Source: a plasmid
Reading direction: 5' to 3' (one strand)
DNA: 64,000 nucleotides
Assembly (NCBI RefSeq): GCF_056746865.1
Contig: NZ_JBWKMP010000003.1
The notes below the pieces were generated by a model. It worked only from the letters and a program-made list of their open reading frames with translations. It was not told the origin of the DNA and searched no databases. Shown in pieces: positions 14,625 to 58,795 of this stretch. Made by a program: the position numbers and the translations under genes. How positions within the stretch are numbered: position 1 is the stretch's first letter; each line of letters opens with the position of its first letter.

Positions 14625-14625
14625 A

Positions 14626-29842: not shown

Positions 29843-30172
29843 ATGAGTTACAGCAGGCTCGACGATCGATGCATTGAAGACGATGTGCTGCGCGCACTAT
29901 TCCATCAGGAGATGATCAAGCGGGTATCGGAGTACCACTCCGATAATTTCCAGTACACGATAAAAATTGATGAGGTTTATCGCTCAGACCTGGCGGCCTA
30001 TCGCGCCTATGGCAACGCTGATTTGCGCTGGGTATTTCGCGTGCTGGTGGGCCATGAGTCAGAAATGGAAGAAATGCCGGTCGGGACAACGTTAACTCTT
30101 CCTGACGCAGCATGGCTAAGAAACAAGATTCGCGATTACGCTGGCTCGGCACCGGAGATAGAAAATGCCTGA
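29843..30172 (+). CDS. hypothetical protein
   Basis: 109-aa ORF. Stop overlaps the next gene by 8 nt. Confidence 0.5.
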   Translation: MSYSRLDDRCIEDDVLRALFHQEMIKRVSEYHSDNFQYTIKIDEVYRSDLAAYRAYGNADLRWVFRVLVGHESEMEEMPVGTTLTLPDAAWLRNKIRDYAGSAPEIENA

Positions 30173-31361
30173 CTTCCTGAAAAATCAGGACGGGCGATAT
30201 ATCACTGACGGCCTGTCCTCTAAGGATTTCACACGCGTATTTGAACTCATCAGGAAAGAGCAAAACCGCAAACGCCGCCAGGCGAACAGGACACTCACGC
30301 CGGGCAGGCTTAGGAATAAATCAGCCGAAGACATTCTTAAGCTGGGGAAAAAGAAAGGCGGCACGTTCTTTACGCGTGACGATCTGAAAGGCTTCGAAAA
30401 GCTGCGAAGCAAAGCACGCGAAAAATATGACAGCAAGACGGCTGGCATTACATACGCACAACTGGTAGCGTCCAGCCAGGCTATCGATATTAAGCGAGCA
30501 AATAACGCCGTAGACGACGGTTCTGGTATCAAAAGAGCTACGCCCGTATCTCTTCGTCACAATGTGATTAATATCCGCGTGGAAGCGTCCGATATATCCG
30601 TTCACCAGCACCACATTGTCCGGGTACGTTTTGAAGAATGGGATCAGATGGTCGATGACATCGCAGAAGACGATAAATCAGCCCTGAAAGTCACAAAATC
30701 ACTGTGTGCCGGGCGAGTGTCTTTCGACTGTGACTGCGGTCGCCATCAATACTGGTATCGCTACATCGCCACTGCGGGTAACTTTGCCCTGGCCCCGCCA
30801 AAAGAATACGCCTATCCAAAAGTTCGCAACCCTAAGCTGCAAGGCGTCGCCTGTAAACATGTGATCCACTCAATGACACGACTACAGTCTGCCAGTTGGC
30901 AGATGAGTATTGCTCGTGCGCTACAAAAGGCTGCAACGCAAATTGCATTTGGTGACGATCGCCGCCGTACAACCAAACACTTCTCAAAAGAAGACGAGAA
31001 GGAGTTTAATCGCAATCGTAGCAGTAAAACGAACGTTGAAGCCGCCAAACGCGAATGGAGGCTCTATCAGAAGCGCCAGGCAGCTTTAAGTACAAAACTG
31101 GCGAAGGACAACGGCAAGATCGACAAGCTACGTGACCAACTGACCAGGGCCAGAAAGTTGTCAGACGCACAGAAAAAACGAGCGGCAGCAAAAGAAGCGG
31201 CCTTGCAACGTGAGAAACAGAAAAACAAGGAGCTTCAGCAACGCCTTGCCGATCAGTTCGCACTGAAGAAGCAGGCGTTCATTGATGCGCTGGTCATGGC
31301 AGGAACGTCACCTGGGCAAGCTGAAAAAATGTTTATGGAGTACGTGAAGAAAGGTTCTTGA
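30165..31361 (+). CDS. SWIM zinc-finger protein with a Lys/Arg-rich coiled-coil C-terminus
   Basis: 398 aa. FDCDCGRHQYWY...(26 aa)...CKHVIH fits the SWIM CxCx(n)CxH signature. Confidence 0.55.
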   Translation: MPDFLKNQDGRYITDGLSSKDFTRVFELIRKEQNRKRRQANRTLTPGRLRNKSAEDILKLGKKKGGTFFTRDDLKGFEKLRSKAREKYDSKTAGITYAQLVASSQAIDIKRANNAVDDGSGIKRATPVSLRHNVINIRVEASDISVHQHHIVRVRFEEWDQMVDDIAEDDKSALKVTKSLCAGRVSFDCDCGRHQYWYRYIATAGNFALAPPKEYAYPKVRNPKLQGVACKHVIHSMTRLQSASWQMSIARALQKAATQIAFGDDRRRTTKHFSKEDEKEFNRNRSSKTNVEAAKREWRLYQKRQAALSTKLAKDNGKIDKLRDQLTRARKLSDAQKKRAAAKEAALQREKQKNKELQQRLADQFALKKQAFIDALVMAGTSPGQAEKMFMEYVKKGS

Positions 31362-31372
31362 TTGACAACAAA

Positions 31373-31391
31373 GGCGGTCATACAGACCGCC
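31373..31391. terminator. hairpin GGCGGTCATACAGACCGCC between convergent genes
   Basis: 7-bp stem; a T-rich tail is present on the minus strand. Confidence 0.45.
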
Positions 31392-31395
31392 GAAC

Positions 31396-31755
31396 TCATA
31401 CACCAACCAGGCTTTCAAGAGGAATGCCAAACTGGGAATGTAAACGACGAATCATAGGTAACGTTAAATTTCGTGTTCCATTTAGCACTTCGTAAACACG
31501 ATTTGACTTACCAATCGCCGGTTCCAGATCCTTCACGGTCAGCCCTTGCTGTTCCATACGGAATTTAATGGCCTCAATAGGTGATGGTGGCTCAATTGGG
31601 TAATGTTTTTTCTCGTACTCCTCAATGAGAAGACACATGACCTCAAAGAAATCACCTTCCGGGGTGTTCATTTCCGGTTCGTTATCGAACATCGGTTCGA
31701 CCGCACGCAGTGCGGCCTCATAATCTTGTTCTGTACGGATAGGTTTAATGTTCAT
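31396..31755 (-). CDS. HigA-like (E. coli YgjM-type) HTH antitoxin homologue with no cognate toxin (orphan)
   Basis: 119 aa from MNIKPIRTEQDYEAAL. The C-terminal HTH GLTVKDLEPAIGKSNRVYEVLNGTRNLTLPMIRRLHSQFGIP parallels E. coli HigA GLTLSDLPEIGSKSMVSRVLSGKRKLTLEHAKKLATRFGIS. Confidence 0.6.
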   Translation of the reverse strand: MNIKPIRTEQDYEAALRAVEPMFDNEPEMNTPEGDFFEVMCLLIEEYEKKHYPIEPPSPIEAIKFRMEQQGLTVKDLEPAIGKSNRVYEVLNGTRNLTLPMIRRLHSQFGIPLESLVGV

Positions 31756-31765
31756 TAATTCCAAA

Positions 31766-31793
31766 GGAAAGCCCACTTGTTAAGTGGGCTTTT
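31766..31793. terminator. hairpin GCCCACTTGTTAAGTGGGC plus TTTTT between the two antitoxin genes
   Basis: 6-bp stem with T/A runs on both strands. Confidence 0.45.
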
Positions 31794-31811
31794 TGTATGT
31801 GTTTAACTATA

Positions 31812-32150
31812 TCAGGCTGCTTTTTTATTCAGGTTCCGCTGAGAAATAAATTTTTCAGCAGTATTGATACGACTTAACTCTTCCTGAACGCGCATATCAT
31901 TTTCGACTTCCCACAGGTCTACTGCGGTCTGAAGATTAATCCAAAAATCTACAGAAGTATCGAATGCTTTTGCCAGGCGATATGCCATATCCATCGTTAG
32001 CTTACGATTGTTATTAACAAGAGCACTTACGGTGTTACGATGAACATGAAGTATTTCTGCTAACTCGTTGATCTTAAGCTCTAACGGCTCCAGGTATTCG
32101 TACAGCAGGATATCACCTACAGTCGTCGGTTTTCTGGTTGCCTGTTTCAT
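31812..32150 (-). CDS. higA: HigA antitoxin (XRE-family HTH)
   Basis: 112 aa. HTH ELAEILHVHRNTVSALVNNNRKLTMDMAYRLAKAF. Immediately downstream of higB. Confidence 0.75.
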   Translation of the reverse strand: MKQATRKPTTVGDILLYEYLEPLELKINELAEILHVHRNTVSALVNNNRKLTMDMAYRLAKAFDTSVDFWINLQTAVDLWEVENDMRVQEELSRINTAEKFISQRNLNKKAA

Positions 32151-32221
32151 TTTTTGCCCTTACTAGCGTGCGTATTAAGTGGACTCTGGTCAGTACCTGG
32201 CCCATCCGCCGGGTATTTGTT

Positions 32222-32524
32222 TTAGTATTTGTGAGGGTCGAGATACAAGTCCTCGGCCTTTCCGTTAACCCACTTAAAAATTAACCTGTATTGCTTATTC
32301 ACCCTTATTGATGAATAGCCGTTTAGCTTCCCTGACAATTCCTCATACCGATTACCTGGTGGTGATCTCAAGTCCTTCCAAGTAGTTGCAGCATTGATAA
32401 TATCCAGCTTCCGCAACAATGTAATCTGAATATCAGAAGGTATCTTTTTGTGTGGTATTGAAAATTCAAAAAAATCATCAAGCCACTCATCCCTGAAATT
32501 CTTTATGTTAATCTTTTTGCTCAT
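32222..32524 (-). CDS. higB: HigB toxin (RelE/ParE superfamily; plasmid maintenance killer family)
   Basis: 100 aa. FRDEWLDDFF...KKIPSDIQITLLRKLD...NRYEELSGKLNGYSSIRVNKQYRLIFKW is typical of HigB. Toxin-first gene order. Confidence 0.8.
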   Translation of the reverse strand: MSKKINIKNFRDEWLDDFFEFSIPHKKIPSDIQITLLRKLDIINAATTWKDLRSPPGNRYEELSGKLNGYSSIRVNKQYRLIFKWVNGKAEDLYLDPHKY

Positions 32525-32687
32525 CGATCATTTTATCCTCCATGATTATTAATGAATGTCATAATGATAGCGCACTGTTGCACCGTGCGCAAGTGCATAT
32601 TGTAACAATTCCCCTCCTCCATCCAAAATCACAATCTCCCGAAAATCTTCCTTTCGATACCTGATAAATCGACCTTTGAGGACGCTT

Positions 32688-33482
32688 ATGGGCCGTTTTG
32701 ATGAATGGCTTGCTGATGATGCAAGCCTGATGAGAAAGGGAACAGAACATGACAGCACGCAGAGAGAAGAGACAACGACGGTTGAAGCGAATGAAGGAAG
32801 CACAACGGAAAATGGGAAGGTCAGTACAGGGCCATTCAGTATTCTGGAAGAACACGCTGCCACCGAAGCAGATAGCCGCCATGATAATTGGCCTGATAAT
32901 GCTGGTGACTCTGTTACGGAAGTGATTGAACCTGACATCGCCCCCCTACCGGCATCGCTCGCTAACAGAGAACCAAACCAGCAGCTTAAAACCCGATATA
33001 ACGGACACAAAGCGTTCAACGACCAGATCCGCGCCGATTGGATGCTCATTATTGAATCAAGCCCTGACGCATTCGAGGCGCTTTTATATCGCCCGGCTGA
33101 TGGCACCTATGGCGTCGTAAACGATGAAACAGGTGAAGAGTCATTCACGCAACTGGACAACAACCAGCGTGAGCTTACCTATCTGGAACCGGAAATCGTA
33201 TACGTCCTGGACAACCCGGACGGAAGGGATTCGTTTCATGCCATTGATGCCGATGGAGAACAGGATGGTCTTGCTGATGAAGTGCTAATCCTGCGTATTG
33301 CTGCAAACAACGTACCTGTTGGTTCAATCCTGGAATGGAACGAAGAAATGGCGAATGGCCTCGCCCGCCGCTGGTGGTACGTGCACCGAATCTTCAGCTA
33401 CGGAACACAACACGTCGGCTCCCTTTATTACTGCATCCCGGCCAGGAACTTTGATACCACTCAAAACGGAGTGATCGAATGA
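32688..33482 (+). CDS. hypothetical acidic protein
   Basis: 264 aa from MGRFDEW, with GAGGA RBS. Confidence 0.45.
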   Translation: MGRFDEWLADDASLMRKGTEHDSTQREETTTVEANEGSTTENGKVSTGPFSILEEHAATEADSRHDNWPDNAGDSVTEVIEPDIAPLPASLANREPNQQLKTRYNGHKAFNDQIRADWMLIIESSPDAFEALLYRPADGTYGVVNDETGEESFTQLDNNQRELTYLEPEIVYVLDNPDGRDSFHAIDADGEQDGLADEVLILRIAANNVPVGSILEWNEEMANGLARRWWYVHRIFSYGTQHVGSLYYCIPARNFDTTQNGVIE

Positions 33483-34246
33483 CATCCAACAAAACTCTCC
33501 TGTCCCGCATTGGCGAGTGGCAGACAACGCGTACTGGAAAATTCCAGACAACTGGTCTGGAAAGAGTGGATAACGCTTTTGCTACGCTAATCAGTGACAT
33601 TTTTTCTGACGTAACGCTGGTGGAACCAGCAAAAGAAGAAAGGCGCTTTGCATCATTCCTGAGTCGCCCACCAGCGGAGCGTGTTTATGTTGCCCGTTTT
33701 GATAACGCGGTCGAGTTCCTTAAAGCGGTTCGCCGTGCTAATGCCGGGCAAGGGAGAAAGCCAGAGAATCCGAACATTAATCGCGATGCGCTCCCTCTGA
33801 TTAATATCTCGCGCTCAATGGATATCAGCTATATCAACAATGACCAGCAGATAGACCGCAAAAGCTGTGATCACTTCTGCGAACCTGGCAGCGGTATGCC
33901 TTTAGTAGCCCTGGAATACACCCAGGCAAATCTGACGTATGACGTTACATTAATGGCGACGGATAAGGCGACCATGAGTCTGATGTGTAATTCGCTAGGA
34001 GCACGTCTTCGCTTGATGGCAGGAACGCAGTTTGAAGCAACAACCCCGCTGGTACGAGTACCCGTCCCGCTAATTTGCGCGATTCAGGATGCTAAAGACA
34101 TCAGTTTTACTGATGTTTCAGCCCCAATTGGGGAAGAGCGTATTTATGCTGCACAAACGGCAATTAGTGTTATAGCAGACGTGATCACCGCCTGGGAGCT
34201 GGACGCGAAACGAATTATTACTGAAACCTCTCTGAGAATGGGGTAA
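33479..34246 (+). CDS. hypothetical protein (baseplate-associated by position)
   Basis: 255 aa, overlapping and preceding the hub/spike genes. Confidence 0.45.
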   Translation: MTSNKTLLSRIGEWQTTRTGKFQTTGLERVDNAFATLISDIFSDVTLVEPAKEERRFASFLSRPPAERVYVARFDNAVEFLKAVRRANAGQGRKPENPNINRDALPLINISRSMDISYINNDQQIDRKSCDHFCEPGSGMPLVALEYTQANLTYDVTLMATDKATMSLMCNSLGARLRLMAGTQFEATTPLVRVPVPLICAIQDAKDISFTDVSAPIGEERIYAAQTAISVIADVITAWELDAKRIITETSLRMG

Positions 34247-34249
34247 GCC

Positions 34250-35230
34250 ATGTCCCAGGAGCTACAGCAATACTTTCTACAGTCCGTTACCATCAACGGA
34301 AACAAAGTACCCAGGGAGTGGATATTCACTGCCGTATATGTGGAAAAGGCAAACCTGCGTGCACCATTGCTGAAACTGGAAATTCACGACATTACCGGCA
34401 CCATAATTGATGACTGGAAAACAAAATACGGCGCAGCACTGGTTGCAGAGATGGGAGATCCACAAGGCAATTCAGGCACGTTTAAAACAACTTTTTTCGT
34501 AACATCTGCGGTGCTGGCTGGTGATGTCATCACGGTCATTGCAGTCAGTGAAGACGTTCGGATATTTAAGATCCCCGCCATACGGGCTAACCTGCATACA
34601 AATAAAACGCCTGATACCATTTTCAAGACGTATACCGGTACACTGAAAATCGCCTCCAGCGCATTGAAACGAAGCTGTACGTACCATCTTTCCGCCGGGG
34701 AAAAACCCTCCAAAATGCTATCTGAAATGGCCCGCGATAAAGGCGCTTTATGCTGGGCCTGCCGTGGTCAGTTTAACTTTTATACATTAGCTGACCTTAT
34801 GAAAGCCAAACCATCATTCACCTATGAAGGGAACAACCCCAGGGCGGAATACACGATTTCAAAAATGAGGCTTATACAGCAAGAGTATGCCGTTACGGCA
34901 AATACTCAGTATCGATTTACCGGCTATTCAATGACTGAAGGCTATGTCGAATATGGCGATAGCTCACTTCCAATACGCTATATATCCGATCCGGATATGG
35001 AAACTCTGCGCAATATGCAATTGTCGCTCGTACCCAAAATGGATATTGAGGTCGCGGGTAATCCCGACATCACGCCGGGAATGGTTATTGAGATCCTCGT
35101 GTATCGTTACGACCAGGAAAATAAGCTGGACGAATCGTTGCCTCGTAAGCTGTTGGTGAAAAACGTAGCCCATTTTGAGGACCGGATCGGCTATACAACA
35201 CGAATGATATTAGGAGTACCCAACCAGTGA
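34250..35230 (+). CDS. putative baseplate hub protein (gpD / Mu gp44-like position)
   Basis: 326 aa immediately upstream of, and overlapping, the gpV-like spike gene. No motif-level proof. Confidence 0.35.
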   Translation: MSQELQQYFLQSVTINGNKVPREWIFTAVYVEKANLRAPLLKLEIHDITGTIIDDWKTKYGAALVAEMGDPQGNSGTFKTTFFVTSAVLAGDVITVIAVSEDVRIFKIPAIRANLHTNKTPDTIFKTYTGTLKIASSALKRSCTYHLSAGEKPSKMLSEMARDKGALCWACRGQFNFYTLADLMKAKPSFTYEGNNPRAEYTISKMRLIQQEYAVTANTQYRFTGYSMTEGYVEYGDSSLPIRYISDPDMETLRNMQLSLVPKMDIEVAGNPDITPGMVIEILVYRYDQENKLDESLPRKLLVKNVAHFEDRIGYTTRMILGVPNQ

Positions 35231-35904
35231 AACGCAGAGCGCAAATCGTAGGGACCAAACACCCTGCCGGACTTATGCGAGCGCAGGTCCGCATACTGCC
35301 TGACTGGAACGGTGTACCGGATGAAGACCTCCCATGGGCAGAGTATCAAATGCCTATCGGTAACGCCTTTACACCTACAGTCAGCGGCGATTTAGTCTGG
35401 GTCGAATTTCCTTATCTGGATGCTAAAGGCAGGATAGACACGCGCCGACCTTTAATCGTTGGCGCGGCGCAGGATGCCCCAGGAGGCGTACCAAATGTGC
35501 CTCCGGAAGCCTCCGGACAAGGAAACGGATGGTCGCCAGAAGAAGTTGATGGTGCTCCTGCCCGCCCCCAGTTTTCGGCGACTGAAGATTTTGTTATTCA
35601 CCGAAACAATATCCTTGAGGTCAGAACGGCTGGCGGTGGCTATGAAATAGCAAACACCGCCGCAGGATCAAGGATAGGGATGAACGAATCCGGCCAGATT
35701 TACATAATCGGCCCGGCGAATATAGTGCTTAATGCTGGAGGTGAGGTTAACGTCAAATCAAGCAGCAAAACCAATGTATCCTCAGATGGAGACGTTAATG
35801 TAAAAGGCAGCAATGTAACCGTCGCCGCTGATGGTGATATAGCCCTGAAAGCTGGTGGCGCGCTAAAAGCAACAGCGAGCAATTTCTCCTTTGTGAAGGG
35901 ATAG
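35227..35904 (+). CDS. baseplate spike protein (gpV/gp5-like OB-fold plus beta-helix)
   Basis: 225 aa. N-terminal RAQVRILPDWNG...WAEY..P.G....PTVSGDLVWVEF matches the Phage_base_V OB domain. C-terminal repeats VNVKSSSKTNVSSDGDVNVKGSNVTVAADGDIALKAGG look like a beta-helix. Confidence 0.6.
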   Translation: MKRRAQIVGTKHPAGLMRAQVRILPDWNGVPDEDLPWAEYQMPIGNAFTPTVSGDLVWVEFPYLDAKGRIDTRRPLIVGAAQDAPGGVPNVPPEASGQGNGWSPEEVDGAPARPQFSATEDFVIHRNNILEVRTAGGGYEIANTAAGSRIGMNESGQIYIIGPANIVLNAGGEVNVKSSSKTNVSSDGDVNVKGSNVTVAADGDIALKAGGALKATASNFSFVKG

Positions 35905-35911
35905 CAAAATG

Positions 35912-35956
35912 CAAAACTGTGTTAGATAATTGAGTTTTATTTTCTAACACAGTTTT
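35912..35956. promoter_or_regulatory. 15-bp perfect inverted repeat CAAAACTGTGTTAGA...TCTAACACAGTTTTG carrying the TCTAACA operator motif
   Basis: 15-nt spacer; sits directly upstream of rdgC. Confidence 0.45.
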
Positions 35957-35963
35957 GCGAAAC

Positions 35964-36869
35964 ATGAGATTAGTCGCCTTTAAAAACATATACGTCTATC
36001 GCCTTGCCCGCGAAATTAAACTGGACTCAACCACCGTTAGTGATGCCTTAAGCCAATTCACATTCACTCCATGCGCATCACAAGAAATGGCAAAAGTCGG
36101 ATGGGTGCCGGTTCTGGCTGACAACCTGATCCATGAATACCACGGTTTTCTACTTCTCCAGCAACAGCGAGAAATTAAGCTCCTGCCCTCTCATGTCATT
36201 AAGGAGGAAGTGCAGAAAAAAGTGGAAAAGCTCGAAAATGAGCAATCTCGTAAGCTGAAGAAGTCGGAAAAAAACACCCTGAAGGATGAAGTTCTCCACT
36301 CTTTGTTGCCTCGCGCATTCACTCGCAAATCATTGTCGCGAATCCTTATTGATCGCGACAACTATCTGGTCTTCGTAGAAGCTTCCAGCGCCAGAAAAGC
36401 AGAAGAAATGCTGGCGCTCTTACGTAAATCACTTGGCAGCCTGCCAGTGATTCCATTCACGCCGATAGAACCGCTCGAAATGACTATGACCGAATGGTTC
36501 AAGTCAACATTTCCTCAAGGCTTTAAAGCAGGCGAAGAAGCCATATTGAAATCTCTGTTCGATGACGGCGGCGCAGTTCGTTGCAAGAAAGTAGACCTAC
36601 AGTCAGAGGAAATAATGACTCATATTGAAGCCGGAAAAGTTGCAACAACAGTTGCAATCAACTGGCAGGACCGCGCGACCTTCAGGTTAAACGATGACAT
36701 GAGCATCAAAGCACTGACGTTTTGCGATGATCTCTATGACCAGAACGATGACATCGACCGTGAAGATGTTGCCCAGCGATTTGATGCTGACTTCATTCTG
36801 TTCACAAGCGAATTATCCGCGATGTTTAGCTCGCTGGTGGAGGCCATTGGCGGTGAAGCAGAGCATTAA
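35964..36869 (+). CDS. rdgC: recombination-associated protein RdgC
   Basis: 301 aa, collinear with E. coli RdgC: FKNxxVYRL, FTPCxSQxMAKxGWVP, KLLPSxVIKQ, KLKKxEKxxLKDEVLHSLLPRAF, ALLRKSLGSLPVxP, EDIDREDxAQRFDADFIL. Confidence 0.85.
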   Translation: MRLVAFKNIYVYRLAREIKLDSTTVSDALSQFTFTPCASQEMAKVGWVPVLADNLIHEYHGFLLLQQQREIKLLPSHVIKEEVQKKVEKLENEQSRKLKKSEKNTLKDEVLHSLLPRAFTRKSLSRILIDRDNYLVFVEASSARKAEEMLALLRKSLGSLPVIPFTPIEPLEMTMTEWFKSTFPQGFKAGEEAILKSLFDDGGAVRCKKVDLQSEEIMTHIEAGKVATTVAINWQDRATFRLNDDMSIKALTFCDDLYDQNDDIDREDVAQRFDADFILFTSELSAMFSSLVEAIGGEAEH

Positions 36870-37533
36870 TAACCGACCGCTGGCGGTGAGTCTTTGTGAT
36901 TATACAGGGAATATGGTTTCCCCCTGGCTGGAACACGGCATTGATGCAGTCATTGTCGATCCGCAACACCAGGAGTCCGGCAGCCAATTGATGGAGTCAG
37001 GTGCTGTACTCACACGTATCAGCGCAATTATTGACAGTGATGAGGTCTACAATTTCCTTCGGAAAAATTTGCACAGAGTTGTATTTTTAGCCGGTTTCCC
37101 TCCATGTACTGACCTGGCTGTATCTGGCGCACGCTGGTTCGCAGATAAAGCAAAAAAAGATCCGGTTTTCCAGTTCAAAGCAATGCAGGTTGTCTGGCAG
37201 TGTTACGACATTGCAAAGATGATTGGTTGCCCGTACATGATTGAAAACCCGGTCAGCCAAATATCGACATTCTGGCGTAAACCTGATCACATATTCCATC
37301 CTTATCACTTCACTGCATATTGCAAGGAAGACAATTACACCAAAAAAACATGCCTGTGGAGCGGACAAGGATTCATCATGCCAACTCCGCGAATCGACAA
37401 GTCGTTAGGTGATCCAGATAACCGAATACACAAGGCACCGCCAGGGCCTGAAAGAGCGAATTTTCGTAGCGCGACACCTTACGGTTTTGCAAGAGCTGTA
37501 TTTGAAGCAAATAAGGAGGGAATCCGTGGCTGA
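36850..37533 (+). CDS. short C5-cytosine DNA methyltransferase-like protein
   Basis: 227 aa from a GTG start with GGAGG RBS. Motif I-like LCDYTGNM, PC motif LAGFPPCTDLAVSG, ENV-like MIENPVSQ. No target-recognition domain is apparent. Confidence 0.45.
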   Translation, partial: AVKQSINNRPLAVSLCDYTGNMVSPWLEHGIDAVIVDPQHQESGSQLMESGAVLTRISAIIDSDEVYNFLRKNLHRVVFLAGFPPCTDLAVSGARWFADKAKKDPVFQFKAMQVVWQCYDIAKMIGCPYMIENPVSQISTFWRKPDHIFHPYHFTAYCKEDNYTKKTCLWSGQGFIMPTPRIDKSLGDPDNRIHKAPPGPERANFRSATPYGFARAVFEANKEGIRG

Positions 37534-38274
37534 TATTGGTGCTAAATTTATTTCTTATAGCGACAATCATCGTCCTGCGGCGGAAGCCACTATCAGCCAT
37601 ATGCGACGTATTCGCTCGGAGGACGAATTTGATCGCCCAGTCTTTAAGTGGGTCGGCGGCAAATTTTCTGCACTGCCCATTATCTTCGAACACCTGCCCC
37701 ACGGAAAACGGTTGATAGAACCTTTCGTTGGAGGTGGCGCTGTTTTCACTAATGCCGGATTTAAAAGCAACCTGCTGAACGATATCAATAATGACCTGAT
37801 TAACTTCTATCAGACATTGCAGCGTGAAGGGCATTCTCTTATCACACTGGCATATCGTTTTTTTCAGGATTACAACTCTGCTGATGCATTTTTGAATGTT
37901 CGCAATGCATTCAACAATGGTGCTTATGATTCCCTTCACCATGCAGCGGCGTTCCTGTATCTCAATCGTCATTGTTTTAATGGCGTCACTCGCTATAACC
38001 GTAAAGGAGAGTTCAACGTCGGATATGGAAAGCAGAAATCACCCCACTTCCCTCTCGCGGAAATGGAGGCGTTCCTGGCTGACGATATTTCAAAGTATTC
38101 GGAATTTGTGTCCGGCGATTTTGCTGGTGTAATTGAGGCTGCCGGGAATGATGATGTGATTTTCTGCGATCCCCCCTATGAACCATTGCCTGACACTACC
38201 GGATTTACAAATTACTCAGGGCATAGCTTTAGGTTTGAAGATCAACAACGGCTGGTGTCACTGCTGGTGGATGC
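37527..38274 (+). pseudogene. Dam-like N6-adenine DNA methyltransferase, 5' portion, interrupted by IS2
   Basis: GTG start after AAGGAGG. FKWVGGKF (Dam LKWAGGK-like motif I) and DPPY (motif IV). The frame is broken at the IS2 junction after ...LLVDA. Confidence 0.7.
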
Positions 38275-38285
38275 TGGATTTGCCC

Positions 38286-39191
38286 CTATATTTCCAGACA
38301 CCTGTTATCACTTAACCCATTACTGGCCCGCTGCCGTAGATATTCCCGTGGCGAGCGATAACCCAGTGCACTATGCGGATGCCATTCGTTATAATGCTCG
38401 AACGCCTCTGCAAGGTTCTTTGCTGCCGTTAACCCGTCTGGTTTAGGCATGATACTGATGTAGTCACGCTTTATCGTTTTCACGAAGCTCTCTGCTATGC
38501 CGTTACTCTCCGGACTCCGCACCGCCGTGTTCTTCGGTTCAAGCCCCAACATCCGGGCAAACTGCCGTGTTTCATTAGCCCGGTAGCATGAACCATTATC
38601 CGTCAGCCACTCTACTGGAGACGCCGGAAGCTCGTTGCCGAAGCGGCGTTCCACCGCTCCCAGCATTACGTCCTGTACTGTTTCACTGTCGAAGCCGCCC
38701 GTAGTGACTGCCCAGTGCAGTGCCTCACGGTCACAGCAGTCCAGCGCGAACGTGACTCGCAGTTTTTCTCCGTTATCACAGCGGAACTCGAACCCGTCAG
38801 AGCACCATCGTTGATTGCTTTCTTTCACGGCCACTTTGCCAGTATGTGCCCGTTTCGATGGCGGTACAGCGGTTTTTCGCTCAAGCAACAGCGCATTCTG
38901 GCGCATGATCCGGTAAACACGTTTGGCATTGATCGCAGGCATACCATCAAGTTCGGCCTGTCTGCGAAGCAGCGCCCATACCCGACGATAACCATACGTG
39001 GGCAGCTCTCCGATAACATGGTGTATACGGAGAAGCACATCCGTATCATCTGAGTGACGGCTGCGGCGACCATCTTTCCAGTCATCGGTTCGTCTGAGAA
39101 TGACGTGCAACTGCGCACGCGACACCCGGAGACAACGGCTGACTAAGCTTACTCCCCATCCCCGGGCAATAAGGGCGCGTGCGCTATCCAC
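38286..39191 (-). CDS. insD: IS2 transposase InsD (orfB; DDE integrase domain)
   Basis: 301 aa beginning [29 protein letters not shown]... Expressed as an InsCD fusion by -1 frameshifting. Confidence 0.9.
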
Positions 39192-39514
39192 TTTTTTGCA
39201 CGCCCGTATTCAACGGCTTCTTTAAGGAGTTCATTTTCCATCGTTTTTTTGCCGAGCAGGCGCTGGAGTTCTTTAATCTGCTTCATGGCAGCAGCAAGTT
39301 CAGAGGCAGGAACGACCTGCTCTCCTGCGGCCACAGCAGTAAGACTTCCCTCCTGGTATTGCTTGCGCCAGAGAAATAACTGGCTGGCTGCCACACCGTG
39401 TTGCCGGGCAACAAGGGAGACCGTCATTCCCGGTTCAAAACTCTGCTGAACAATAGCGATCTTTTCCTGTGTAGTACGCCGTCTGCGTTTCTCCGGTCCT
39501 AAGACATCAATCAT
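39149..39514 (-). CDS. insC: IS2 InsC (orfA; HTH)
   Basis: 121 aa beginning [41 protein letters not shown]... Confidence 0.9.
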
Positions 39515-39605
39515 CTGCTCTCCAATGACTAGTCTAAAAACTAGTATTAAGACTATCACTTATTTAAGTGATATTGGTTGTCTGGAGATTCAGGGGGCCA
39601 GTCTA

Positions 39606-39779
39606 GATGCCCACAGACGCGGAGCGAAAATTGTGATAACAAACAGTGGTGCGCCTAACATTCGCGAACTTTACGTTGGCAATGGCTTCAAGGTGTATCC
39701 TATGCCATCCCGTCGCTCTGTATCCTGTAAAGCATCAACGCGAATGATAGCTAACGACATTATAGCCACACTTAATTAA
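39606..39779 (+). pseudogene. Dam-like methyltransferase, 3' portion, displaced by IS2
   Basis: Continues in frame through the target duplication (...VDA|[15 protein letters not shown]...). Resembles the E. coli Dam C-terminus (RGAKVLVSNHDT). Confidence 0.6.
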
Positions 39780-39799
39780 GAAAAGCCCCATATGGGGCT

Positions 39800-39905
39800 T
39801 TTATAACATCAAACAAGCACCGTTACGGTACACTAACAACACCATTCTGGTACTAAAAAGGAATCAAAGTAGCCTCAAAATAACACATGGACCCAAAACG
39901 GTGTC
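39800..39905. repeat. centromere-like repeat block downstream of the parFG-like operon
   Basis: AACAACACCATTCTGGTACTAAAAAGGA and AGCCTCAAAATAACACATGGACCCAAAACGGTG; both units recur, permuted, upstream of the operon at 40986..41075. Confidence 0.4.
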
Positions 39906-39914
39906 ATTCCGGCG

Positions 39915-40202
39915 TCATTTTGTATCCTCAGACTCTGCAAGCATGAGGATAGCATGGCGGATCATATTCAATTTGCTGCGATTATGCTTTTTGCTTAACG
40001 CATCAAGTACCTGGTACTCGTATTCATTGAAGCCAACACGAATGGATTTAAAATCACGTGGGGCGTCCTTATCGAGCACTTTGTTGTCTTCTGGTTGCTC
40101 ACCCGGCACCAAATCAGCTTTGCTGGCAAAAGCCTCAATTCGGCGTTCAAGATCGAGGTCTTTTACTTCGGGGGCTTTTACCGATTTACGAGGCTTAATC
40201 AC
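39915..40202 (-). CDS. small partition protein (ParG/ribbon-helix-helix type, by size, position and predicted C-terminal helices)
   Basis: 95 aa immediately downstream of, and overlapping, the ParA-type ATPase gene. Confidence 0.5.
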   Translation of the reverse strand: MIKPRKSVKAPEVKDLDLERRIEAFASKADLVPGEQPEDNKVLDKDAPRDFKSIRVGFNEYEYQVLDALSKKHNRSKLNMIRHAILMLAESEDTK

Positions 40203-40836
40203 TTAATAACTCCTTAACCAACATCTGGATTTCACCTTTAGCTTTCCCGTTGTCCATCTCAACAACGCCCTTCCCTTCAGCCATACAATCGCGGTAAACC
40301 TTGCGATCGCGAATGATGGTTTTCAGCAACTTCAGTTGCGGATATTCAGCCAGGTACTCTTTGGCCTCATTGGCTTCATTCACAACCGGATTGGATGGGG
40401 CCATTGTTAAAACTGCGCACGCCTTAATGCTAGGATTAGGCATCAGATCCAAAGCCTCTTCAAAGACTTCAACAAAATGCGCCAGCGTGTCTAAATCTGG
40501 CTGAGATGGCCTGAATGGAACAAGCAAAACATCCGCCGCAGTAATACCGGTGCGCATCTCTTTGCTATCACGACCAGCGGTATCAACAACCACAAATTCA
40601 TAACGCTTGTCCAGATCAAGAAGTGTTTCACGAATATTCCCAAACTTCTGGACGCAATGAATTACTGGAGAAACCTCTGCCGCATTACGGTCCGATGCCC
40701 AACGGGCAGATGTTCCTTGCTTATCTGCATCAAGTAGAACTACGTCCTTATTTGCGCGGGCAAGCTCCGCACAAATGTTTACGCTGGTGGTTGATTTGCC
40801 ACAGCCACCTTTTTGGCTGGCTACCAATATAATCAT
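40195..40836 (-). CDS. ParA/ParF-type partition ATPase (small type Ib)
   Basis: 213 aa with deviant Walker A KGGCGKST, VVLLDAD, VVVDTAG. Confidence 0.8.
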   Translation of the reverse strand: MIILVASQKGGCGKSTTSVNICAELARANKDVVLLDADKQGTSARWASDRNAAEVSPVIHCVQKFGNIRETLLDLDKRYEFVVVDTAGRDSKEMRTGITAADVLLVPFRPSQPDLDTLAHFVEVFEEALDLMPNPSIKACAVLTMAPSNPVVNEANEAKEYLAEYPQLKLLKTIIRDRKVYRDCMAEGKGVVEMDNGKAKGEIQMLVKELLSD

Positions 40837-40985
40837 ATCCGTCCCTCGGTGTTATTTTGGTATCAAAATGGCTCCAAACAGAAGCCTTATTGATGCGGTT
40901 TTGGCTCTATAGTGGAGTCACTATGCTTTGCAAAAGTATAACACTAAACACTCGAAATTTGCCCTCTGTTGCATCCTGTTTAACA

Positions 40986-41075
40986 CGAAGTCAGCCTCAA
41001 AGTGGAACCAGACACAAAACAGCACCACAACAACACCGTTTTGGTACTAAAAGAGCACCAAATTAGAACCATAAC
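40986..41075. repeat. centromere-like repeat block upstream of the parFG-like operon
   Basis: AGCCTCAAAGTGGAACCAGACACAAAACAGCAC and AACAACACCGTTTTGGTACTAAAAGAGCA, homologous to the units at 39800..39905. Confidence 0.4.
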
Positions 41076-41080
41076 AGTAT

Positions 41081-41106
41081 AAAAAAGGCTGCAAATTGCA
41101 GCCTTT
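41081..41106. terminator. hairpin AAAAAAGGCTGCAAATTGCAGCCTTT terminating the minus-strand parMR operon
   Basis: 8-bp stem with a T6 tail on the minus strand. Confidence 0.5.
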
Positions 41107-41121
41107 GAAGATGTAGATTTG

Positions 41122-41487
41122 TTAATCAGGGAGTGAGTTTGCCAAATTCTGTGCAGAGCGGCTTTTCGAAACGCCAGGTTTTTTAACATCCGCTGAGGCT
41201 GAGGGGTTTCCTTCAGGGTTTTCCCGAACTTCAGGCGAAATTTCAAGAAATGAAACCAGCATTTTTCTGATCACTTCAGGGCTATTATCACCGGATAAAA
41301 GCGATGCCAACATGGGAGGTAATCTGCTATCAACCTCGCCAAGAGCGATACCTGCAAGCATCGCTGTGCGCGCCATATCATTGCGATCTCTTAATGGATG
41401 GCCCTCAAGTTTTGCATCAGCATATTGCTCACTGGCGTTAAGACCAGGACGAAGATAAAACAATACTTTTCGACGTTCCTGAGACAT
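41122..41487 (-). CDS. parR: ParR-like centromere-binding protein (by position after parM)
   Basis: 121 aa directly downstream of the actin-like ATPase gene. Confidence 0.45.
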   Translation of the reverse strand: MSQERRKVLFYLRPGLNASEQYADAKLEGHPLRDRNDMARTAMLAGIALGEVDSRLPPMLASLLSGDNSPEVIRKMLVSFLEISPEVRENPEGNPSASADVKKPGVSKSRSAQNLANSLPD

Positions 41488-41497
41488 GGCAACCTCA

Positions 41498-42454
41498 TCA
41501 ACCGATAGATTTTAGACCATAGACAAGAGCAAGTTGTGGATCATCAGCAACGAAAAACCTATCGTCACGAATGTTTACCTGCTCACGGATAGCATCAGCA
41601 ACAAGCGGCGCGCCGCCACCAATGACCATAACATGCGTGTATCCTTTGAAATCACTGATCACATCCAGTACGCGTGTACGGAGTCGTTCTATGCTTGACG
41701 AAATGGCTTTCTTAACATCATCAATAGCAGACGGATCGTTAATATTGTCGGTCAAATAATCCTCATCATCACGATTAATGATTAATTGATCGACATTATA
41801 ATTAGAGGTTTCGGTATTCGCTTTTGCAAGTGCCTGTCTGACCTCTTTAGTTACCAGCGAAACGCCGAGATTAGAATCGCCAAATACGCGAGAAACGGCG
41901 GTCATTTGCCCGGCGACCATCGACACATCCAGAGTAGTCCCACCAAGATCAACAATAAGCACAGAATGCGCTGGCACAAGGCTGTCGCACAGACCGATCC
42001 CTGCGGGTATTGACTCCGGGCGCACAGTCACTTTTTTGATAGTAAAAACCTGACCTTTGTTAAGGGTGACTGGTCGCATCAGGCTGGCCTTTTTCCGCTC
42101 AATATTTTTCATGTTGTATTGTGCGTCGTCGTCATAAAACTCTGCCAGTGGCAACGTGACAACTATTTCCACTTCTTGAGGCTCAATGCCACTTGTAAGC
42201 AGGGCATGATGAACAGCAAGCACATTAAGCGGGCTGTATTGCCATTCAACGTTATTCGTCGGCAGCACATCCGGCGAGATCAAGTCATATGAATATTTTT
42301 CGTCATCAATGATGTAGTTAAACGGCTTTCCTGCGCCAAATGTGGCGGACCATCCACGTTTAAAACTGTTCGGACAGATATGGGTTCGAGTTTCCCCGTC
42401 TTGTTCCCACAGCATTTTGATATTGGTAGAACCATCGTCGATAAAAATGCGCAT
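41498..42454 (-). CDS. parM: ParM/StbA actin-like segregation ATPase
   Basis: 318 aa from MMRIFIDDGSTNIKM (GGAG RBS), matching the ParM N-terminus (FIDDGSTNIK). Further actin-fold phosphate motifs VLIVDLGGTTLDVS and MVIGGGA. Confidence 0.8.
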   Translation of the reverse strand: MRIFIDDGSTNIKMLWEQDGETRTHICPNSFKRGWSATFGAGKPFNYIIDDEKYSYDLISPDVLPTNNVEWQYSPLNVLAVHHALLTSGIEPQEVEIVVTLPLAEFYDDDAQYNMKNIERKKASLMRPVTLNKGQVFTIKKVTVRPESIPAGIGLCDSLVPAHSVLIVDLGGTTLDVSMVAGQMTAVSRVFGDSNLGVSLVTKEVRQALAKANTETSNYNVDQLIINRDDEDYLTDNINDPSAIDDVKKAISSSIERLRTRVLDVISDFKGYTHVMVIGGGAPLVADAIREQVNIRDDRFFVADDPQLALVYGLKSIG

Positions 42455-42539
42455 CATATTGCTCCACTTCTGAGACACATTTGAGAAAGAATTGAATTTT
42501 ATATGAGAAAACAAAATAAGACCAGAAGTTAGATAGCGT

Positions 42540-42680
42540 AAAAAGCATCAAACAAGAGACGTAAGAGAGACGCAAAAGAGACTTAGATGATACATGATGT
42601 ACCCACGATACCCGTTTGAGACAAATCAGAGACAAATGTGAGAAGTAAGAAATCTGAAGAGTGAAAATCACAAAGTGGAG
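42540..42680. repeat. parC-like iteron array (about 8 copies of (A/T)GAGAC(A)AA(T)) in the divergent region upstream of parM
   Basis: AGAGACGTAAG, AGAGAGACGCAAA, AGAGACTTAGA, TGAGACAAATC, AGAGACAAATG, TGAGAAGTAAG and others. Confidence 0.4.
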
Positions 42681-42706
42681 AAGATTTAAGAAAAAGGAGG
42701 TGTTAG

Positions 42707-42991
42707 ATGAGTGCAATAGCGACCAGTGACACAGTTTGTTCTGGTCATGGAGGATTCCCTCCGCGACCTGTAGCAGAAACAGTTTCCTGGTTTACCGTAA
42801 ATGGAAAGCCAGTGGTTGTAGATGGGGGAGCGTTCCCCAGCCATACAGACGGAAATAGCGCGCACCCCGGATCAGCCGTATCGACGCGCTCATGGTTTGC
42901 AATAGGCGGGAAAGGAGTTGTTTGTGTGGGAGATCCCCTTTCTTGTGGCTCAGTCATCGCCAATGGTGAGGCAATTTTTCAGGTGTCATAA
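42707..42991 (+). CDS. PAAR-like spike-tip protein (tentative)
   Basis: 94 aa with repeated small hydrophobic/Gly motifs and conserved Cys/His (CSGHGG...SHTDG...HPG...GDPLSCGSVIANG). Confidence 0.35.
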   Translation: MSAIATSDTVCSGHGGFPPRPVAETVSWFTVNGKPVVVDGGAFPSHTDGNSAHPGSAVSTRSWFAIGGKGVVCVGDPLSCGSVIANGEAIFQVS

Positions 42992-43785
42992 TGCTTGATT
43001 CAATCGCTGAAGTTAATGCATTCAAAATTCTAAATGCATCAGGCACAACTACGCCTGCATCTATCACGCTAAGTAAAACAGCGTCATCCAATGCCAGTTC
43101 TCTGGAAGAGAATATCCAGGCTCTTATCCTGAAGGATAAAGCATACCCGGCGTCGGTGGTTTCATGGGTCAATCAGCTTTCTGTCTTTTCAGAACAACTG
43201 AAAACTGTCAGTGCAGAAGCAACCAATTTAGCCGACTCGCTGTCTCCGTATACTTCGCCAACTGAATTACTTCAGATGAAAATTGGCTGGGAATGTTACG
43301 TCAAAGGTAATGAGTTATCTCCTGCGCCAGAATTTGCTCTCGTAACAGTTATGGGAGATACCCTGCATCCGCAATCGCTTATTGACGCGTTGGCAGCATT
43401 TGAACTGGTGCCAATCACTTCAGCCATGACCGCTATAAATGCAAAAGTTCAGGCGTCAAGCGGGGAGGCTTCAGGCAACGGAAGTTCCACCGGAACAACA
43501 CAGCAACCAGCACTAACAGAAGAAGAGATCAAAGCACTAAAAGACGCTGTGGAAGCAGCAACAGAACAAATAAATGCAATAAACAACACGAGCAGTAGTC
43601 TCTCAACACTTGTACAGCAAGTTAAGGACTCTACCGGAAAAGCCAAACAGGGACTGGAGAATGCTGTAGCTATTACGTTAACCGGTTCTCTACTGGGCGA
43701 TGAAGTAATGAGTCCGGCAATCAGTTTGATCATGCCACAAGGTGTGATCGATGCGCTCCAAAACAACACTAAAAAGGAACCATAA
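42991..43785 (+). CDS. hypothetical Ser/Thr/Ala-rich protein
   Basis: 264-aa ORF with overlapping stop and start with the upstream gene. Confidence 0.45.
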   Translation: MLDSIAEVNAFKILNASGTTTPASITLSKTASSNASSLEENIQALILKDKAYPASVVSWVNQLSVFSEQLKTVSAEATNLADSLSPYTSPTELLQMKIGWECYVKGNELSPAPEFALVTVMGDTLHPQSLIDALAAFELVPITSAMTAINAKVQASSGEASGNGSSTGTTQQPALTEEEIKALKDAVEAATEQINAINNTSSSLSTLVQQVKDSTGKAKQGLENAVAITLTGSLLGDEVMSPAISLIMPQGVIDALQNNTKKEP

Positions 43786-43855
43786 CCACACCATTTAAGC
43801 CCATAAATGGTTACAAATTGGTACACATATCACACCAACAAAAAATCTGAAGAGG

Positions 43856-44314
43856 ATGGTTTTGAAAAAGATAATTTTGATAGTAGTTGCGCTTTTAGCC
43901 ATTTATGGAATTTACCGTACTACGGCGGCAGTTATCGATCACATCAGGTATATCCGTTCCCTGGAAGACTCAAAATCACAACTTGAAAGCGAGAACAACA
44001 CGCTTTCTACCGCATTGCAGTTAAGTGAAAAATCGCGATCTGCCATGATGGCTGAAAACGAAAGAATTAAAACACTGGAGAAGGAGTACCAGCGCAAAAC
44101 AGCAGAACTGAATACCAGCCTGATCAAACAACGGGAGGAAAGCCAGAATGAAATCAATCGTCTTGAAACTGCGTTACGCAATGCCGGGGTTAATGATGTG
44201 CGTGTGCCTGATGACGTTATCAGGATGCAGCGGGAACGGGCAAAAGAAATCAATCAGCGTGCCAATGCAAATTACCGTAGAAGCCACCAGCAAACCGCAG
44301 GGAAATCTGATTGA
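43856..44314 (+). CDS. i-spanin (Rz-like; N-terminal TM helix plus periplasmic coiled coil)
   Basis: 152 aa. TM segment IILIVVALLAIYGIY followed by a charged heptad-rich region. Confidence 0.55.
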   Translation: MVLKKIILIVVALLAIYGIYRTTAAVIDHIRYIRSLEDSKSQLESENNTLSTALQLSEKSRSAMMAENERIKTLEKEYQRKTAELNTSLIKQREESQNEINRLETALRNAGVNDVRVPDDVIRMQRERAKEINQRANANYRRSHQQTAGKSD

Positions 44315-44528
44315 TTATACCCCTTGCATAGTGCCAGAGGACACGCCTGTGCTGTTAAACAAGTATCCGGCATACACTGAACAGTTATTCAGCACTATCG
44401 ATGAATGCAACCAACGAAACGCACTGAATAACCAAAGGAATAGGGAGATTTGGGAAGGGAAGGGGGTTAAGGCTCCTGAAGCCAGATGTCCTGGCTGTCA
44501 GCTTCTTCGAAACCGTGACAGACGTTAA
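44148..44528 (+). CDS. o-spanin (Rz1-like lipoprotein) in +1 frame, overlapping the 3' part of the i-spanin gene
   Basis: Lipobox LMTLSGC. Starts inside the Rz-like gene and extends past its stop (overlapped architecture). The start could be at the internal M at 44184. Confidence 0.45.
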   Translation: MKSIVLKLRYAMPGLMMCVCLMTLSGCSGNGQKKSISVPMQITVEATSKPQGNLIDYTPCIVPEDTPVLLNKYPAYTEQLFSTIDECNQRNALNNQRNREIWEGKGVKAPEARCPGCQLLRNRDRR

Positions 44529-44949
44529 AGTCACTCAAGCGATACTGGCGCTGACGGCCTCTATTTCGCTCATGCCAATGCATATATCCACCAGCAAATG
44601 CCAGCGGACAATCGCTATAGTCGATGTAGCCAATACCATTACCCAAACGCGCTTCGCGCGCCCCGGCTTTCCAGGACAGCAGAAAAGAGTCACGATCTGC
44701 CAGCATGACTACAAAATCATCCAGATCGCCTATGCAGTGAAGAATGCCTGCCTTGCATAACTGTTTGAGTGCCTTGGACTGACTCAGGATGTCTTCACCG
44801 TAATACTGAAAACAATCATCAACAATAGCGGGATAGCCAGCGGGTGGATTCAGGCTGGTTGGTATAGCTGACGCGATAGCCAGCATTAAACGATATTGTG
44901 TTTTCGATGGGTTCGCGTGACTCATGTTTCCTCTACTCACTGTCTCCAT
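44467..44949 (-). CDS. hypothetical protein
   Basis: 160-aa ORF. Confidence 0.4.
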   Translation of the reverse strand: METVSRGNMSHANPSKTQYRLMLAIASAIPTSLNPPAGYPAIVDDCFQYYGEDILSQSKALKQLCKAGILHCIGDLDDFVVMLADRDSFLLSWKAGAREARLGNGIGYIDYSDCPLAFAGGYMHWHERNRGRQRQYRLSDFNVCHGFEEADSQDIWLQEP

Positions 44950-45329
44950 GCATTTTTCAGCTCCGGAATATCAGCCATTTCAACCAGCTTCCGAAGCCCC
45001 GCGCTGACCTTCCCATTACCAACCGCAGCAAGCCAATCCCTTACTGACTTCGGCATATAAAGAGTGGTCGTTACAGGATCTTCCACTCTTACAGGCGTGC
45101 CAATTTGAGGCCACTTAACAGATGCCAAAACGTCAGAAGGCGGGGTAAGCGCGGGAACATTAAGAATAGCCTTTCCTGAATGGAGAATCACGATTCGTTC
45201 AGCCAGGGAAAGAATGTCTCTTTCAGTAAGGATTGATGACAGTTGAGCTTCTACAAGGCATCTGCTGCTTGTATTCAGAGAATGGCTTTTAGCACCATTT
45301 TTGTATGAAACGAAGATCTTGTACGCCAT
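44937..45329 (-). CDS. hypothetical protein
   Basis: 130-aa ORF. Confidence 0.4.
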   Translation of the reverse strand: MAYKIFVSYKNGAKSHSLNTSSRCLVEAQLSSILTERDILSLAERIVILHSGKAILNVPALTPPSDVLASVKWPQIGTPVRVEDPVTTTLYMPKSVRDWLAAVGNGKVSAGLRKLVEMADIPELKNAWRQ

Positions 45330-45330
45330 T

Positions 45331-45410
45331 TGTTCTAATGTTTTATGTTAGAAAATTAAGATTAAACCATACTAACACAAGATTGTTAACGAAAATTATT
45401 TTTCTAATGC
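45331..45410. promoter_or_regulatory. cluster of four operator-like half-sites (TGTTCTAATG, TGTTAGAAAATTAA, CTAACAC, ATTTTTCTAATGC) in a divergent promoter region
   Basis: Same core motif as the other dispersed sites. Lies upstream of the head-protein candidate. Confidence 0.4.
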
Positions 45411-45488
45411 TATTGACTAAATAACAAAGTGAGTATTGTCACCTCGTCAAAAGAATCTTCACGCCGCGCCCGAATTTAGGGTTTAACC

Positions 45489-47186: not shown

Positions 47187-47290
47187 CAGTGGCGAACGTG
47201 TCAGTTTCACCAACGGCAATTGAAGTAAACGAAGGTGAAACTATCGCCGCAAGCACTTCAAAGACACGAAAAACACCCAAAAAGAAGTAA
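47177..47290 (+). other. candidate -1 programmed frameshift: slippery heptamer A_AAA_AAG (47177..47183) at the stop codon, opening a 35-codon -1 frame extension
   Basis: GAA AAA AAG TAG in frame. The -1 frame reads VAVANVSVSPTAIEVNEGETIAASTSKTRKTPKKK* (stop at 47288..47290). The extension matches the N-terminal strand of a Big_2 Ig-like domain. Confidence 0.35.
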
Positions 47291-47327
47291 GACAAGCCCC
47301 TGAATAGGGGGCTATATGGAGGAAAAA

Positions 47328-47606
47328 ATGGCTGATATTCAGGTAACTATTACCCCACCAAATGCGACAGATAAAACTTTCACTGTCGAATCCGATCATC
47401 CGGAAATTGTGAGTGTTGATGGAACCACATGCACCGCAGTATCTGCTGGTACTGCGGTACTAACCATCAAAACTACAGATGGAAATAAAACCGCAACATG
47501 CACTGTAACGGTTAATGAAGCCGCAGTAAGTGTCAACTCTGTCAGCGTTGATCCGTCAACCAAAGAAGTGACGGTAGGTGACAGCTTCACGGTCGGCGAA
47601 GCCTGA
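47328..47606 (+). CDS. Ig-like (Big_2) domain protein, probable head decoration / Hoc-like
   Basis: 92 aa from MADIQ (GGAGG RBS, 5 nt spacer). IQVTITPPNATDKTFTVESDHPEIVSVDGTTCTAVSAGTAVLTIKTTDGNKTATCTVTV matches the Big_2 consensus lacking its first strand. The C-terminus VSVNSVSVDPSTKEVTVGDSFTV is another first-strand copy. Confidence 0.55.
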   Translation: MADIQVTITPPNATDKTFTVESDHPEIVSVDGTTCTAVSAGTAVLTIKTTDGNKTATCTVTVNEAAVSVNSVSVDPSTKEVTVGDSFTVGEA

Positions 47607-47608
47607 TA

Positions 47609-47637
47609 AAAGCCTCCCCATGCAAATGGGGAGGCTT
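47609..47637 (+). terminator. hairpin AAGCCTCCCCATGCAAATGGGGAGGCTT
   Basis: 11-bp stem immediately after the stop; the U-tract is weak. Confidence 0.45.
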
Positions 47638-47671
47638 CTCTCATCCGCTCGATAAAGAGGAAAAGAGCAGC

Positions 47672-49327: not shown

Positions 49328-49370
49328 TTTATCTTCCCCGCTGAAACGCGGGGATGAATGAGGTTTCCTA

Positions 49371-50117: not shown

Positions 50118-50135
50118 TGATGTAAGCCACCTGTA

Positions 50136-50753: not shown

Positions 50754-50761
50754 GAGTAATT

Positions 50762-51253: not shown

Positions 51254-51304
51254 TACCGATCCCGCTCAAAAGAGCGGGATTATCCCCCTCCGTCCGGAGT
51301 ATTT

Positions 51305-52577: not shown

Positions 52578-52599
52578 AATGCAATATTAAAGTGCGAGA

Positions 52600-53664: not shown

Positions 53665-53697
53665 AACCCTGTGTGATCCTTCAAATGGTGAGGGCAA

Positions 53698-58790: not shown

Positions 58791-58795
58791 GACCG

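Follow-up and report, generated by a model that had tools for sequence, protein, structure and literature searches.

What becomes of a phage-plasmid's own adenine methyltransferase gene when an insertion sequence (IS) lands in it, and would the loss matter in a host that has a Dam enzyme of its own? The question is raised by a 64,000-nucleotide (nt) stretch of a plasmid contig (NZ_JBWKMP010000003.1, assembly GCF_056746865.1; the whole stretch analysed is referred to here as the window), in which a dam-like gene is split by a copy of IS2. An original prediction, made from the letters of the window, had described a complete IS2 with a 5-bp target duplication inside this gene, and had read it as a clean, recent pseudogenisation and as a marker of traffic with the Escherichia coli chromosome. 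Here we argue that IS2 very probably inserted recently into the dam gene of the phage-plasmid, that the methylase is most likely inactive as a result and that its loss is probably close to neutral in a dam+ host.

The interrupted gene lies in two parts:

37526..38274, plus strand: 5′ part of the Dam-family methyltransferase gene, codons 1-249 and the first 2 nt of codon 250
39606..39779, plus strand: 3′ part of the same gene, codons 249-305 and the TAA stop, in frame after removal of the IS and one GATGC

The original prediction turned on whether these flanks form one continuous Dam-family open reading frame (ORF), and they do. Joining 37526..38274 to 39611..39779, with the IS and one GATGC removed, gives an uninterrupted 918-nt ORF of 305 amino acids (aa), free of stops. 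The start is a GTG at 37526, one base before the position first proposed (37527), with AAGGAGG 6 nt upstream.

By homology, the interrupted gene is that of a Dam-family, D12-class N6-adenine DNA methyltransferase. The reconstituted protein matches Pfam PF02086 (D12-class N6-adenine methyltransferase) over residues 42-280 with an E value of 1.7e-53 (182.4 bits, against a curated cut-off of 22), aligns end to end with residues 4-266 of E. coli Dam (E 1.6e-51) and is also similar to DpnM (E 6.9e-45). Among the PHROGs profiles it matches the C-terminal part of phrog_116, a methyltransferase profile of 779 positions. The 5′ fragment carries the motifs FKWVGGKF, EPFVGGGAVF (the S-adenosylmethionine (AdoMet)-binding motif I, FxGxG) and FCDPPYEP (the catalytic motif IV, DPPY). 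Conserved, too, are the residues aligned with K9, N120 and R124 of E. coli Dam, which, together with L122, P134 and Y138, we take from Dam structures to be in contact with DNA. This similarity makes a GATC specificity of the phage-plasmid enzyme likely.

The point of insertion is marked by a short duplication of the target:

38270..38274, no strand: left copy of the 5-bp target-site duplication GATGC
39606..39610, no strand: right copy of the 5-bp target-site duplication GATGC

These direct repeats are perfect and adjoin both ends of the IS2, and the chance of a 5-bp match at fixed positions is about 1/1024. The original prediction had pointed to related phage-plasmids as the place to look for the intact gene, and it is present in plasmid 4 of E. 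coli MINF_7C (NZ_LR890273.1, 92830 bp), a D6-like phage-plasmid whose IS-free allele has GATGC once at this site. There the gene, annotated as WP_016262374.1, ‘Dam family site-specific DNA-(adenine-N6)-methyltransferase’, is intact; it differs from the joined gene of the window by 2 synonymous changes and its protein is identical. When the window was aligned to this plasmid with BLAST, positions 32626-38274 corresponded to 67465-73108 of the reference and positions 39606-59332 to 73104-92830. The two blocks share exactly 5 bases, GATGC, and the flanks abut in the IS-free relative. Because the overlap is exactly 5 bp and the joined gene is in frame, this is a simple IS2 insertion with a 5-bp target duplication, directly proven by comparison with the IS-free relative. 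The duplication spans the Asp249 codon and the first 2 bases of the Ala250 codon, and IS2 thus sits within the Ala250 codon, inside the last codon of the proposed ...LLVDA rather than after it.

The inserted copy of IS2 is complete, with intact ends, orfA, orfB and A6G frameshift site. It was delimited by its length and ends, which match the earlier call exactly, by its match to a copy in NZ_CP102854.1 and by alignment to IS2A (insC1/insD1) of E. coli K-12 MG1655:

38275..39605, minus strand: complete IS2, 1331 bp
39564..39605, minus strand: IRL, the 42-bp left inverted repeat (TAGACTGGCCCCC... on the minus strand), identical to K-12 IS2A
38275..38315, minus strand: IRR, the 41-bp right inverted repeat (TGGATTTGCCCC... 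on the plus strand), 1 substitution relative to K-12 IS2A
39149..39514, minus strand: IS2 orfA (insC), 121 aa, with an HTH_Tnp_1 domain, identical to K-12 InsC
38286..39191, minus strand: IS2 orfB (insD), 301 aa, with HTH_21, rve and rve_3 domains (DDE integrase core), 10 residues different from K-12 InsD
39191..39197, minus strand: AAAAAAG (A6G), the programmed -1 frameshift site that joins orfA to orfB, a role taken from PMC3299598

The transposase genes are on the minus strand, opposite in orientation to dam. Read on that strand, the element begins with TAGACTGGCCCCC... at 39605 and ends with ...GGGGCAAATCCA at 38275 (first letters TAGACTGGCCCCCTGAATCTCCAGACAACC, last letters ...GGAAATATAGGGGCAAATCCA). 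Both imperfect terminal inverted repeats are present: the first 87 nt equal those of K-12 IS2A, and the last 41 nt do so with 1 mismatch. In the ORF list the transposase genes appear as an overlapping minus-strand pair of 121/136 aa and 301 aa between 38286 and 39559, and AAAAAAG occurs only once within the element, inside the overlap of orfA and orfB. Inverted repeats of 41 and 42 bp and frameshifting at A6G have been described for IS2 (PMC3299598). With all these sequence features intact, the copy in the window looks transposition-competent.

Where did this copy come from? Its alignment to K-12 IS2A is free of gaps and indels over the same 1331 bp, with 56 substitutions (95.8% identity). In 5426 complete E. 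coli genomes, IS2 matched at 24240 places, spread over 4899 genomes (median 4 and maximum 41 places per genome). One copy was 100% identical to that of the window, on a 233-kb E. coli plasmid (NZ_CP102854.1), and in 1780 other records the best copy was at least 99% identical. The element is therefore near-identical to E. coli copies, as had been proposed, and by these comparisons it is a common, non-K-12 allele of IS2, of the IS3 family and IS2 group. The further proposal that it marks traffic with the E. coli chromosome is not supported as worded: 19578 of the IS2 places are chromosomal and 4662 are on plasmids. Because IS2 resides on both kinds of replicon and the only identical copy is plasmid-borne, the donor replicon may have been either a chromosome or a plasmid.

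We then consider what the insertion does to the gene. The insertion point, residue 250 of 305, falls within the methylase domain (the PF02086 match), so that the protein loses its C-terminal 55 residues and, with them, about 30 residues at the end of the 239 matched by Pfam. The lost part includes the segments ...VITNSG... and ...RRSVS..., which align with E. coli Dam residues 217-266. In their place, reading on from the 5′ fragment would add a tail encoded by the IS:

38275..38446, plus strand: IS-encoded read-through tail of 56 unrelated residues ending ...LTRLV, with the stop at 38444-38446

The predicted product of the disrupted gene thus consists of 250 native residues and 56 residues encoded by the IS. 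Because the cut falls inside a conserved Pfam domain, the phage-plasmid Dam is most likely inactive here and the gene most likely an IS2-disrupted pseudogene.

The effect would probably be confined to dam itself. Two neighbouring features define its transcriptional setting:

36727..37533, plus strand: intact upstream methyltransferase-like gene with PC and ENP motifs, overlapping the dam start; its true start codon is uncertain
39781..39802, plus strand: hairpin AAAAGCCCC-ATAT-GGGGCTTTT with a 9-bp stem, starting 2 nt after the dam stop, with a minimum free energy of -14.6 kcal/mol

The dam start overlaps the stop of the upstream gene by 8 nt. The hairpin, which was not listed by a simple consensus scan, is likely to be a bidirectional intrinsic terminator, and dam would therefore be the last gene of its operon. 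In the ORF list, the genes that come next after dam lie on the opposite strand. Given this strand arrangement and the hairpin, a polar effect of IS2 on other genes is not expected. Gain of function through the IS, by an outward promoter or a polar effect, was considered and rejected: a consensus scan returned no promoter-like site at either junction, and the terminator follows. As a separate observation, the upstream gene has motifs like those of C5-methyltransferases (GFPPCTDLAVSG and MIENPVS) and no Pfam match at E<=0.001, and it matches phrog_757, ‘DNA methyltransferase’, with an E value of 3.8e-78; its counterpart is annotated as hypothetical (206 aa) in NZ_LR890273.1 and as ‘DNA methyltransferase’ orf64 in phage D6.

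To place the insertion in time, the joined gene can be set beside its relatives. The joined ORF matches 102 PLSDB plasmids, all of about 90 kb and 100 of them typed as non-mobilizable, with 4 matches at 99% identity or more; in 99 of the 102, at least 80% of the gene lies in one uninterrupted stretch. Relative to the joined gene, the alleles of NZ_LR890273.1, NZ_CP085065.1 and NZ_CP104667.1 carry 2, 6 and 7 changes, respectively; all nine distinct variable sites among them are synonymous, so that each of the three encodes exactly the reconstituted protein. As 22.9% of the possible single changes in dam are synonymous, the chance of an all-synonymous outcome is about 2e-6, and by this measure dam is under purifying selection in the relatives.

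Neither dam fragment in the window carries a secondary lesion. Because the repeats are perfect, the IS is identical to a known copy, the fragments are free of further lesions and the flanking gene parts differ by only 2 synonymous changes, the insertion is, by these marks, recent when set against the divergence of these plasmids from one another. The description of a clean and recent pseudogenisation therefore stands. The same IS2/dam junction was not found in PLSDB plasmids, the 5426 complete E. coli genomes, GTDB species representatives, JGI metagenomes or IMG/VR. Among INPHARED phages, which were queried with the IS-free left flank only (30000-38274), phage D6 was the sole match, and its dam gene is intact.

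Recurrent pseudogenisation of dam had been suspected from missing Dam features in the PLSDB gene table, and was rejected when 3 of 4 relatives that were translated proved to have the gene intact. Two of these three (NZ_CP085065.1 and NZ_CP104667.1) encode exactly the reconstituted protein, and the apparent lack of Dam features comes from gaps in the gene table. The fourth, NZ_CP069647.1 (locus L007, 25888-29800), has many small frameshifts throughout dam, rdgC and the neighbouring genes, which look like uncorrected long-read assembly error rather than biology.

Together, these observations fit a simple sequence of events. An active-looking IS2 of the IS3 family would have transposed into the Dam-family gene of a D6-like phage-plasmid and duplicated GATGC at codon 250 of 305, in what would be the last gene of an rdgC, methyltransferase-like gene and dam operon. 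The truncated fusion product would leave the methylase most likely inactive, presumably with no polar effect. In a dam+ enterobacterial host, the Dam of the host would methylate the GATC sites of the element, making the loss of the phage-plasmid gene nearly neutral. Work on P1 offers a precedent: packaging of P1 requires GATC methylation at its pac site, with dmt indispensable only where the host is Dam- (PMC12707154), and dmt-A and dmt-B were non-essential in a CRISPR interference (CRISPRi) screen in E. coli (PMC10695390). Because of this precedent, and because host Dam is able to methylate GATC, loss of dam is probably tolerated and near-neutral in an ordinary dam+ host.

Other explanations would have the gene still functional or its loss favoured. 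IS2 is highly repeated in E. coli, such repeats often cause misassembly, and the junction is in no other record of PLSDB or the complete E. coli genomes, all of which might suggest that a repeat copy was misplaced at this position and that dam is really intact. A misjoin, however, would not yield an exact target duplication of the 5-bp length made by IS2 at the exact IS termini, nor would it leave flanks that rejoin in frame to match the intact allele, and such an assembly artefact is extremely unlikely. If the insertion is real, could DNA still be methylated by the truncated protein or by both fragments acting jointly? The part of the gene upstream of the insertion encodes motif I, the target-recognition region and the DPPY of the catalytic motif, and an 84-aa ORF (39525-39779) has its start within the IS and continues in frame into the 3′ fragment. 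Yet the insertion falls within the Pfam domain and removes the VITNSG and RRSVS segments, and neither a promoter nor a ribosome-binding site that would serve the 3′ fragment was identified; we regard residual activity as highly unlikely.

The insertion could also have been selected rather than neutral, with the dam knock-out benefiting the host or the plasmid. It might remove surplus Dam that perturbs mismatch repair or gene regulation, or it might cripple methylation-dependent packaging and so domesticate the element as a plasmid. Loss of a gene that is under purifying selection in relatives should have a phenotype; cleavage of P1 pac depends on adenine methylation (PMC12707154); and pacA of the window, encoding the pacase A subunit, has 5 GATC within 150 bp (411-560). 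Host Dam, however, would still methylate pac, and the cluster in pacA is not unusual, about one such cluster being expected among the 218 GATC sites in 64 kb. Nor do the relatives point to selection: the absence of the junction from the collections named above gives no sign of a spreading lineage, and dam is not recurrently inactivated (99 of 102 PLSDB records uninterrupted over 80% or more of the gene, and 3 of 4 translated genes intact). A selected insertion is, in our judgement, unsupported and highly improbable. That the knock-out is adaptive because it makes lytic packaging or replication dependent on host Dam levels, or locks the element in the plasmid state, is very improbable; if true, it would represent an early step in the domestication of a phage-plasmid into a plain plasmid. 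As a separate matter, a P1-style GATC-rich pac site was sought in the window and rejected: the best cluster, that in pacA, is expected about once by chance and was not used as evidence.

Several points nevertheless weigh against a recent, near-neutral loss of an active GATC methylase, which we prefer. The inactivity of the enzyme is argued from domain truncation, and its GATC specificity from similarity; where E. coli Dam has L122, P134 and Y138, the aligned residues of the window protein are V, G and Q. Purifying selection in the relatives means that dam matters somewhere in the life cycle, and near-neutrality may hold only for carriage in the plasmid state in a dam+ host. The plasmid population may also be mixed, with IS+ and IS- copies.

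The setting of the insertion is that of a phage-plasmid, as had been supposed. The whole window aligns with NZ_LR890273.1 at 99.3-99.9% identity over most of its length (local BLAST) and with phage D6 at 81.5% identity over 98% of an 8.3-kb query. Tail and baseplate genes, rdgC, methyltransferase genes, a parA-like gene and parM are common to the window, D6 and D6-like plasmids, and in NZ_LR890273.1 the neighbours of dam are tail and baseplate genes, rdgC, a small hypothetical gene, a parA-like ATPase gene and parM. By these comparisons the window is a D6-like, P1-related phage-plasmid.

Parts of the window diverge from its closest relative. The stretch 8295-18355 is mosaic with respect to NZ_LR890273.1, with short blocks of 85-98% identity, a rearranged order and unmatched stretches, and it encodes Ead/Ea22-like and DUF551 proteins as well as several ORFs without a Pfam match, including a 368-aa ORF (8304-9410). 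A region with a HigB toxin and a helix-turn-helix (HTH) antitoxin (31371-32625) has 94% identity over 385 bp to the closest relative, followed by no match; its two HTH genes and higB are laid out as in phage D6. At the end of the window, 63747-64000 matches several positions (4415-5485) of a large gene in NZ_LR890273.1 (2683-6192) at 84-98% identity, which indicates that this gene has internal repeats; it adjoins a tail-fibre assembly gene, on the upstream side of the latter. A Pfam scan of 10 ORFs from regions in which the window and its closest relative differ found no transposase domains that would point to further IS elements.

In practical terms, annotation should label the gene a pseudogene disrupted by IS2. 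This plasmid lineage can be conveniently recognised, by PCR or k-mers, from the unique junction …CTGGTGGATGC|TGGATTTGCC…, which could serve in strain tracking. As a natural dam-null allele of a D6-like element, the plasmid could also be used to probe what the phage Dam contributes when the host has a Dam of its own.

How does the locus compare with known systems? The element shares with known IS2 its orfA/orfB layout, A6G site, terminal repeats and 5-bp target duplication. IS2 is a major spontaneous mutagen of P1, and its landing in a P1-type plasmid prophage in E. coli is a classical observation; Sengstag, Shepherd and Arber reportedly described IS2 insertions in bacteriophage P1, with a P1 hot target for IS2, in 1983 (cited in PMC3299598). 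What we describe is an ordinary insertional pseudogenisation by IS2; both the gene and the type of phage-plasmid are known, the event is already known in kind, and it adds a further example of IS traffic into P1/D6-type plasmid prophages with no new mechanism. Phage D6 has the gene order of the window, with hrdC/RdgC, ‘DNA methyltransferase’ orf64 and ‘DNA methyltransferase’ orf63, and the order hrdC(RdgC), dmt-B and dmt-A in P1 equals the synteny of the window (PMC10695390). The reconstituted protein is 74.8% identical to D6 orf63, which is annotated as ‘similar to C-term half of P1 dmt’, in agreement with the C-terminal phrog_116 match of the window protein. D6 and many D6-like plasmids have glnS, encoding glutaminyl-tRNA synthetase, between dam and the parA-like gene (13231-14892 in locus L002), whereas the window and its closest relatives have no glnS there and 39780-39915 is an intergenic stretch of about 135 bp. 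Finally, dam is unsplit in NZ_LR890273.1 (WP_016262374.1) and in D6 (orf63), and in the window it is split by IS2.

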